700 bases of DNA from Escherichia coli (GCF_003334335.1 NZ_QOWQ01000155.1), one strand, 5' to 3'. Shown: positions 525 through 631, counted from the first letter of the stretch. The notes: generated by a model not told the origin, from the letters alone. Translations and numbers: made by a program.

Positions 525-533
525 TGTTATAAT
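525..533 (+). promoter_or_regulatory. Candidate sigma70 extended -10 element (TGtTATAAT); no convincing -35
   Basis: TG at 525-526, one spacer base, then a consensus TATAAT at 528-533. Upstream 494-524 is AT-rich. Hexamers at 16-18 bp spacing match TTGACA poorly, so activity would depend on the extended -10. Predicted transcription start is about 540-541. Sequence-only prediction. Confidence 0.35.
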
Positions 534-539
534 TCGCAG

Positions 540-631
540 GTTCATCCGCCTCATGTGATGAACTGCGTTTGAGGAAACGTAAAGTTACACTGTCCTGAAG
601 CCCGTGGCGTCACTGCTGCGGGCTTTTTTTT
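540..631 (+). ncRNA. Candidate small RNA (~90 nt) between the predicted promoter and the intrinsic terminator
   Basis: Promoter-like element at 525-533. 5' hairpin 539-564 (GGTTCATC / GATGAACT, 7 bp plus a G·U, 10-nt loop). Second small hairpin 566-579 (CGTTT-GAGG-AAACG). Unpaired stretch 580-597. Terminator hairpin 598-625 followed by U8. No plausible ORF with a ribosome-binding site in the interval. Hypothetical; no expression evidence. Confidence 0.25.
598..631 (+). terminator. Rho-independent terminator downstream of lom and immediately upstream of the stf ribosome-binding site
   Basis: AAGCCCG (598-604) pairs with CGGGCTT (619-625). The loop 605-618 can pair further (G607-C616, C608-G615 plus G·U wobbles) around a TCAC tetraloop. 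A run of 8 T follows at 624-631. The minus strand has no T-tract after the hairpin, so it is unidirectional for + strand transcripts. Confidence 0.6.

Follow-up and report, generated by a model that had tools for sequence, protein, structure and literature searches.

Small RNAs (sRNAs) of the DapZ and MicL type are embedded in the 3′UTR of an mRNA, where they have their own promoter and end at the terminator common to the parent mRNA. The put RNAs of phage HK022 are cis-acting antiterminator RNAs that form two stem-loops just past the promoter. The DLP12-type prophage encodes the RNA IpeX beside its porin gene nmpC. IpeX is among the prophage sRNAs mentioned in the literature (PMC8065619). The lambdoid prophages of EHEC encode a further set of sRNAs, including AgvB, AsxR, EcOnc03, HnrS (EcOnc10-12), StxS and Esr41 (PMC4104026; bioRxiv 10.1101/2025.11.27.690950; PMC7547250). 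AgvB, AsxR and EcOnc03 are 51-60 nt RNAs with a conserved 3′ region of ~42 nt (AGUAUCUCAUGC..UUGCCCGAACCC..), and they are convergent and located downstream of PR′ (PMC4104026). The lambda morons lom and bor are genes that are bracketed by their own signals within the late operon (PMC3594210, citing Juhala et al. 2000).

Here, we describe a candidate RNA unit between the prophage genes lom and stf in a 700-nt stretch of Escherichia coli DNA (GCF_003334335.1, NZ_QOWQ01000155.1), which is referred to as the window. The first-pass annotation had proposed a self-contained promoter-to-terminator unit that specifies a prophage sRNA. The unit proved to be a discrete, conserved and persisting module, and its reading as an independent sRNA is, from the sequence, plausible only.

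The unit is similar to the DapZ/MicL type in that the putative promoter is positioned at or after the end of the upstream ORF, the predicted short RNA ends at the intrinsic terminator of the mRNA and a conserved unpaired stretch precedes the terminator hairpin. However, the promoter lies wholly past the stop codon, the gene that hosts it is a prophage moron, not a core gene, and the RNA is putative and known from sequence. The candidate shares with the EHEC prophage sRNAs its prophage location (in Sakai prophage Sp9), short length, intrinsic terminator and position beside moron or cargo DNA. The known EHEC prophage sRNAs map close to PR′, stx or the terminase region; the present element resides between lom and stf. 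Moreover, the element is mostly single-copy, occurs across pathotypes (ST131 and O104:H4) rather than mainly in LEE-positive strains and is absent from the published Hfq-bound peaks. Membership in the anti-sRNA family of AgvB, AsxR and EcOnc03 was rejected because their sequences, compared by eye, share nothing with positions 540-631; the element also differs from this family in its lom–stf locus and in its orientation on the same strand as the late operon.

As a candidate prophage RNA directly 3′ of a prophage outer-membrane protein gene, the element resembles IpeX, but the two have no sequence relation (an Rfam search found nothing), and IpeX has demonstrated effects on OmpC and OmpF. The architecture of the lambda morons recurs in the terminators after and before lom and in the behavior of the block as an add-on module that is present (151 nt) or absent (63/64 nt). 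Unlike the lambda morons, the extra 87 nt encodes no protein and would be an RNA-only 'moron within a moron'. HK022 put and the present element, both from lambdoid phages, place two adjacent stem-loops between a promoter (putative here) and a terminator, but the stems of the element are much shorter and its genome position is different, a distinction that is based on the general description of put.

Results

Genomic context of the candidate unit

The window exhibits 99.9% identity to prophage P-EibA of E. coli ECOR-9 (AF151091.1), and the identity reaches 100% in the 151-nt spacer. The gene order in the closest chromosome is J, lom, spacer, stf, a gene for a DUF4376 protein and a YadA-like (Eib) gene. 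The features of the window are listed below, with the lineages defined in the next section.

1-493, plus strand: 3′ part of lom (Ail/Lom outer-membrane beta-barrel); ORF 17-493, stop codon 491-493; annotated as Ail/Lom in identical or near-identical records
494-644, plus strand: lom–stf spacer of 151 nt
494-503, plus strand: hypervariable linker just past the lom stop codon, with 40-70% identity between deep lineages; left border of the conserved block
504-524, plus strand: A/T-rich conserved block 5′ of the −10 element, without a recognizable −35; TTTATCTTCTG and AAAYATTG near-invariant in alignment A1
525-533, plus strand: extended −10 promoter element TGtTATAAT by motif match; putative promoter
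538-540, plus strand: predicted transcription start at A538, G539 or G540, 5-7 nt past the −10 element according to standard sigma-70 geometry
540-563, plus strand: hairpin 1 by folding; 7-8 bp stem GUUCAUC/GAUGAAC, with lineage-variable loop and upper stem
564-581, plus strand: hairpin 2 by folding; 7 bp stem and GAGG loop
582-596, plus strand: single-stranded conserved stretch AAGUUACACUGUCCU, candidate seed; no pairing in any fold of lineages A, B and D
597-631, plus strand: intrinsic terminator by terminator scan and folding; 12-13 bp G+C-rich stem-loop 597-626 and U-tail 624-631
632-700, plus strand: stf RBS GGGAG at 634-638 and start of the side tail-fibre gene with ATG at 645; annotated as prophage tail fiber N-terminal domain protein or ORF-401-like

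The flanking genes are lom and stf, as had been assigned, with the Ail/Lom stop codon at 491-493 and the ATG of the tail-fibre N-terminal domain at 645. The lom portion in the window comprises the last 158 codons, and the terminal codons Y-R-F-stop are kept in all lineages. The interval was also correctly described as devoid of a credible ORF, given that the sole long ORF (551-682, minus strand, 43 aa) has an internal stop codon in the common lineage B. A small ORF or leader peptide was ruled out on the same ground, and no ORF is conserved.

In the J–lom spacer, 5′ of the window, locus L001 contains another intrinsic terminator (GGGCACCAGAAATGGTGCC with a T6 run, 5845-5875) that directly precedes the lom RBS. 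Thus, lom has terminators on both sides. In this locus, the J terminator and lom lie too close together to accommodate a promoter.

An extended −10 element and its variation among lineages

The perfect extended −10 element noted in the first-pass annotation was confirmed as TGTTATAAT at 525-533, with TG at 525-526 and TATAAT at 528-533. The motif TGNTATAAT is expected by chance 0.01 times per window on the basis of dinucleotide shuffles of the window (present in 3 of 200 shuffles), and a perfect TGNTATAAT is unique within the 50-kb PhiR5_1 phage genome, whose spacer is 99.3% identical to that of the window. No usable −35 was detected: the window has no TTGACA-like hexamer at 16-18 bp spacing, and a two-hexamer scan of the window returned zero promoters. 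Therefore, any promoter here would be of the −35-independent extended −10 type.

More than 120 loci from IMG/VR were assigned to five lineages by the −10 motif. Because the loci were retrieved via similarity to the core (positions 558-583), the collection carries an ascertainment bias.

Lineage A, exemplified by the window: −10 motif TGTTATAAT
Lineage B, ~90% of the loci: −10 motif TGTTATGAT
Lineage C, exemplified by L004: −10 motif TGGTATAAT
Lineage D, exemplified by the decayed remnant L003: −10 motif TGCTATAAT
Lineage E, one locus (L036): TGC-AATGT, −10 destroyed

The −10 element was expected to be conserved across related prophages if the unit is real, and its critical positions are indeed kept in lineages A-D. 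In alignment A1, the only motif positions that change are N (T, G or C) and −9 (A or G), and the TG, −12T, −11A and −7T positions are unchanged throughout these four lineages. We estimate the odds of three events being confined to two of the nine motif positions at ~0.011. The −10 element is destroyed only in lineage E, a single locus. Lineages C and E differ at 9 of 36 positions of the promoter block (window 504-539; L036 2307-2345 versus L004 2497-2535) and are nearly alike elsewhere, with 97-99% identity in lom and 95% identity in stf. The difference in the promoter block looks like a local patch replacement or promoter-confined decay.

A conserved block with sharp borders

The deep lineages diverge by 7-14% in the block 504-631 versus 32-42% in the flanking segments, which comprise lom 251-503 and positions 632-700 (Fisher p 1e-8 to 1e-10). 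The conserved block spans 128 bases, starting ~21 nt 5′ of the −10 element and ending at the T-run. Past this border, identity between lineages is merely 62-82% over 632-700. Between lineages A and B, identity amounts to 64% in lom 251-400, 40% in 494-503, 89% in 504-539, 83% in hairpin 1, 100% in 564-596, 97% in the terminator, 62% in the RBS and 73% in stf. The stretch 582-596 is 100% identical in four of the five lineages (A, B, C and E) despite a lom divergence of up to 60%.

The lom gene itself is a mosaic, given that lineages A and B are 93% identical over 20-250 and only 64% identical over 251-400. Recombination history could yield part of the conservation pattern because the loci were found through the core, lom is mosaic and the promoterless short spacer described below is equally conserved.

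Structure of the predicted RNA

The two adjacent hairpins of the first-pass annotation were reproduced, in that the predicted RNA from position 540 folds into hairpins at 540-563 and 564-581. Within the putative RNA, only hairpin 1 varies by lineage; lineages A and B are 83-88% identical here. Its five lower pairs are invariant, and the observed changes are one-sided or wobble only. In hairpin 2, the U569-A576 pair is lost in lineages C and E via a T-to-C change, and an alternative GAGG/UCCU pairing is predicted in these lineages.

The open stretch that follows the hairpins was also recovered, but its proposed length of 18 nt (580-597) was not: three of the included bases pair, leaving 15 nt at 582-596. 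The complement of this stretch includes the Shine-Dalgarno (SD)-like sequence CAGGA. The GAGG loop (571-574) can pair with UCCU (593-596), and this fold is predicted in the lom-3′UTR context and in lineage C. Therefore, part of the open stretch may be inaccessible when it is contained in the longer lom transcript.

The G+C-rich terminator with a U8 tail was verified, with the stem at 597-626 and the tail at T624-T631; the tail ranges from T6 to T8 in the other lineages. The terminator by itself has a predicted energy of −20.1 kcal/mol (z = −4.7), and the predicted 92-nt RNA reaches −34.4 kcal/mol (z = −4.0), a stability that none of 200 shuffles equaled. Strong structure, with z about −4, is predicted for the RNA of all lineages. 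The compensatory changes that would have supported the hairpins did not emerge: in the lineage alignment, two-sided changes were found in 0 of the 27 pairs of the three helices, and thus the structure is without phylogenetic support. The covariation score is no different from that of shuffles in this set of five shallow lineages, which provides little power. Because the diversity is too low, covariation neither backs nor contradicts the structure.

Distribution and two alleles of the lom–stf junction

Of 5426 complete E. coli genomes, 1650 (about 30%) contain the long spacer, at 1970 places in total and with a median of one per genome; the spacer element is annotated in none of these places. 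The majority of the E. coli copies represent a variant that is 91-92% identical to the window spacer, and no weaker matches were found in the complete E. coli genomes even at E <= 10. Carriers include EHEC Sakai (Sp9), EDL933 (CP-933P), O104:H4, ST131, ATCC 25922 and APEC strains. The element is located in the two reference EHEC strains as follows.

Sakai, NC_002695.2, plus strand: −10 element at 1,798,947-55 and T-run end at 1,799,052, in Sp9 between ECs_1807 (lom) and ECs_1808 (stf)
EDL933 CP-933P, NZ_CP008957.1, minus strand: 2,297,480-2,297,585

A dispersed repeat (REP, ERIC or MITE) was rejected on the basis of the median of one copy per genome and the location of all examined places at, or derived from, the lom–stf junction. 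A degenerate core pattern, which is strict enough that diverged copies in other species could escape it, gave a single match among 100,044 species-representative genomes and none in any other species. The match is a 4.3-kb contig of a 'Collinsella sp.' MAG (JAIJJM010000250.1) with a lineage-B element, lom and stf, and it is probably a mis-binned E. coli prophage. Thus, core-retaining copies are limited to E. coli within that collection.

In the 80 closest Lom loci from IMG/VR, the lom–stf junction takes two discrete forms, a long allele of 150/151 nt and a short, lambda-type allele of 63/64 nt. The long allele occurs in 44 of these loci and the short allele in 25 scored loci plus 7 that were missed by the stf pattern, and no third spacer type appeared among the readable loci. 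The short spacer is found in Sakai Sp11, Sp12 and Sp15, K-12 Rac and many IMG/VR phages. It contains the terminator and RBS at the same position; the open stretch and both hairpins are missing. The 5′ part of the short spacer, GTAACACAGTGTTATGA, aligns to the −10 region of the long allele, GTAA-ATATTGTTATGA, with a score that 2.4% of shuffles equal. This alignment gives a weak hint that the alleles may differ by an ~87-nt indel whose extent is precisely that of the putative transcribed body. A fixed late-operon site with presence/absence polymorphism, the terminator and the inferred promoter are features of a moron-type add-on.

The unit persists without lom in three loci (L064, L003 and L033). 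In L064 (7932-8960), the final lom codons (...SSRYRF and stop) follow a lambda-E-like major capsid gene as an in-frame fusion; the entire tail region of this defective prophage is deleted, and the spacer element and stf are kept. In L051, the homology stops exactly past the T-run, and an IS200-family transposase element (~6330-6940) is inserted directly after the T-run, between the element and stf.

Comparison with known RNA families and published RNA data

The first-pass annotation identified the unit with no named sRNA. The element likewise matches no Rfam family: a search of all families of Rfam 15 at E <= 10 yielded best scores of 14-16 bits versus thresholds of 39-60, all with E > 1 and with the terminator hairpin alone matched. 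A full-text literature search for the element's sequence, and for lom in combination with tail fibre and sRNA, found nothing relevant. IsrG of Salmonella, which is antisense to a tail-fibre gene, is unrelated. The absence of an Rfam match, the absence of similarity to AgvB or AsxR by eye and the distinct locus indicate that the element belongs to no described family.

The proposed Hfq dependence found no support. No clear U-rich site is apparent before the terminator, where 5 of the 15 nt of the open stretch AAGUUACACUGUCCU are U and none of them form a run, and the Sakai locus is not in the top-100 Hfq-bound lists. Hfq may still bind the element weakly, below the level of these lists. Neither ECs_1807 nor ECs_1808 is found in the top-100 Hfq-CRAC CDS and intergenic lists or in the EcOnc table (PMC4104026). 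The 63 EcOnc candidates (Tree et al. 2014) all have coordinates elsewhere, and HnrS (EcOnc10-12) represents a different locus. The EcOnc candidate filter required a distance of >100 bp from any CDS (PMC4104026), and the element would be excluded anyway because the 151-nt spacer lies within 100 bp of ORFs. The U tail of the terminator has the length (>=6-7) that is characteristic of Hfq-type sRNA terminators.

Sense-strand RNA from the element exists in EHEC. The supplement (file 5) of Waters et al. (PMC5286369) lists one RNase E-CLASH chimera from EHEC Sakai that joins the 3′ half of MicF to AUGGGGUGAACUGCGU, labelled 'ECs1808 5′UTR'. The sense-strand fragment AUGGGGUGAACUGCGU covers the 3′ arm of hairpin 1 and runs into the start of hairpin 2 (NC_002695.2 1,798,973-1,798,990; equivalent to window 551-568). 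It bears on the presence of RNA from this strand and not on its start point. The observation is a single read that possibly derives from lom mRNA or late transcripts. The predicted duplex with MicF consists of 9 bp, GUUUACCCC/GGGGUGAAC, at −14.7 kcal/mol; the pairing is present in lineage B and absent from lineage A of the window (GUGAUGAAC).

Target predictions with the conserved stretch in the 50-kb phage genome and in 16 kb of Sp9, including nleA, nleH and nleF, provided no target that beat shuffled seeds. The best non-self duplexes had energies of −24.2 and −22.3 kcal/mol, no better than those of shuffled seeds.

Discussion

We tentatively favor, at somewhat less than even confidence, the view that positions 504-631 constitute a plausible unannotated prophage sRNA unit that is nested in the 3′UTR of the lom moron and shares the lom terminator. 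The −35-independent extended −10 element (525-533) would start an ~90-nt RNA near 538-540. This RNA would begin with a hairpin whose top varies between lineages, continue through another small hairpin and the invariant 15-nt open stretch, and end at the terminator common to the lom mRNA. Alternatively, the same RNA may be released by processing of the lom mRNA. In the lysogen, the late operon is silent, and sigma-70 would still be able to use such a promoter. The invariant stretch, with its SD-like complement, may act in trans by base-pairing with mRNAs or sRNAs of the host or of other prophages. We infer the promoter activity, the 5′ end, the action in trans and any Hfq dependence of the element. 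The sRNA reading draws on the improbable −10 element, the variation that avoids its critical positions, the sharp edges of the conserved block, its low divergence relative to lom and stf, the invariance of 582-596 in four of the five lineages, the persistence of the unit in loci that have lost lom, the structured RNA with its U tail, the CLASH fragment and the single fixed and widespread locus. It is weakened by the lack of compensatory changes, the broken hairpin 2 in lineages C and E, the absence from the Hfq lists, the lack of a clear U-rich stretch and a −35, the loss of the −10 element in lineage E, the retrieval of the loci through the core, a conservation that recombination, and not selection, could have produced, the lack of targets above shuffles in the phage genome and the Sp9 region and the dependence of the CLASH evidence on a single read.

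The main rival to the sRNA reading is that the spacer is an ordinary lom 3′UTR with a moron terminator that stops lysogenic lom transcription before stf. In such a 3′UTR, the hairpins would stabilize the 3′ end of the lom mRNA or be neutral, the −10 element would be fortuitous or too weak (no −35; hypothetical H-NS silencing), and the conservation would reflect recent horizontal spread and mosaic recombination. We regard this explanation as a real possibility, although not a favored one. The lambda-type spacer of Sp11, Sp12, Sp15, K-12 Rac and many IMG/VR phages has a counterpart of the terminator at the same place, and thus lom alone explains the terminator. A terminator is also present before lom in L001 (5845-5864), which indicates that terminators between late genes are the rule. 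The short spacer is just as conserved without a promoter, and the mosaic lom, the lack of covariation and the position of the locus outside the top Hfq-bound regions are in line with a plain 3′UTR. However, this explanation does not account for the perfect extended −10 element and the variation that spares its critical positions, for the onset of conservation only past the hypervariable 10-nt linker, or for the invariance of the 15-nt unpaired stretch between coding flanks that differ by 30-60%.

Two further explanations assign the hairpins a different role. The element may be a cis-acting leader whose promoter points toward stf and cargo genes such as Eib, NleG and NleA. The hairpins and terminator would then form an attenuator, or else a put-like element that renders RNA polymerase resistant to terminators, and would set the read-through that reaches these genes in the lysogen. 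Its layout of promoter, two abutting hairpins, terminator, RBS and gene fits such a leader, as do the cargo and virulence genes 3′ of stf in these prophages. We nevertheless consider a leader improbable, given that no antiterminator pairing that competes with the terminator stem is predicted in any lineage, no leader peptide is present, the short-spacer prophages Sp11 and Sp12 bear the same kind of cargo, the hairpins (7-8 bp) are short, unlike the put stems as generally described, and tail fibres are not expected in lysogens. We consider it at least equally improbable that the element, either as an RNA of its own or as a section of the lom 3′UTR, serves as a sponge or decoy that titrates a core sRNA such as MicF via the variable hairpin 1, like AgvB and AsxR. 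The chimera of MicF with AUGGGGUGAACUGCGU and its predicted 9-bp duplex point in this direction, and the combination of a variable 5′ part with a conserved 3′ part resembles the anti-sRNA family (PMC4104026). However, the chimera is a single read with 0.073 as one of the two values in its table row, the MicF pairing is lost in the lineage of the window, and a comparison by eye found nothing in the element that resembles the conserved 3′ region of AgvB, AsxR and EcOnc03.

An extension of the favored sRNA reading, which we consider rather doubtful, is that ~30% of E. coli carry an unannotated, E. coli-restricted RNA-only moron, an ~90-nt sRNA that the lysogen expresses from its own promoter and that would reprogram host envelope or virulence mRNAs or sponge a core sRNA (MicF). 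The same doubtful proposal includes a rarer variant, in which the RNA would be a new cis-acting antiterminator of the put kind, allowing cargo past stf to be expressed in lysogens.

If the unit is not transcribed, it is merely a longer variant of the lom terminator region. If the unit is transcribed, roughly a third of sequenced E. coli, with the reference EHEC strains among them, would carry a very widespread prophage regulator that a standard sRNA filter would miss because the element lies within 100 bp of two ORFs. The 151-nt and 64-nt natural alleles represent a ready isogenic comparison. Transcription of the unit would also mean that the classic lom moron of lambda can bear a second, RNA-only passenger.
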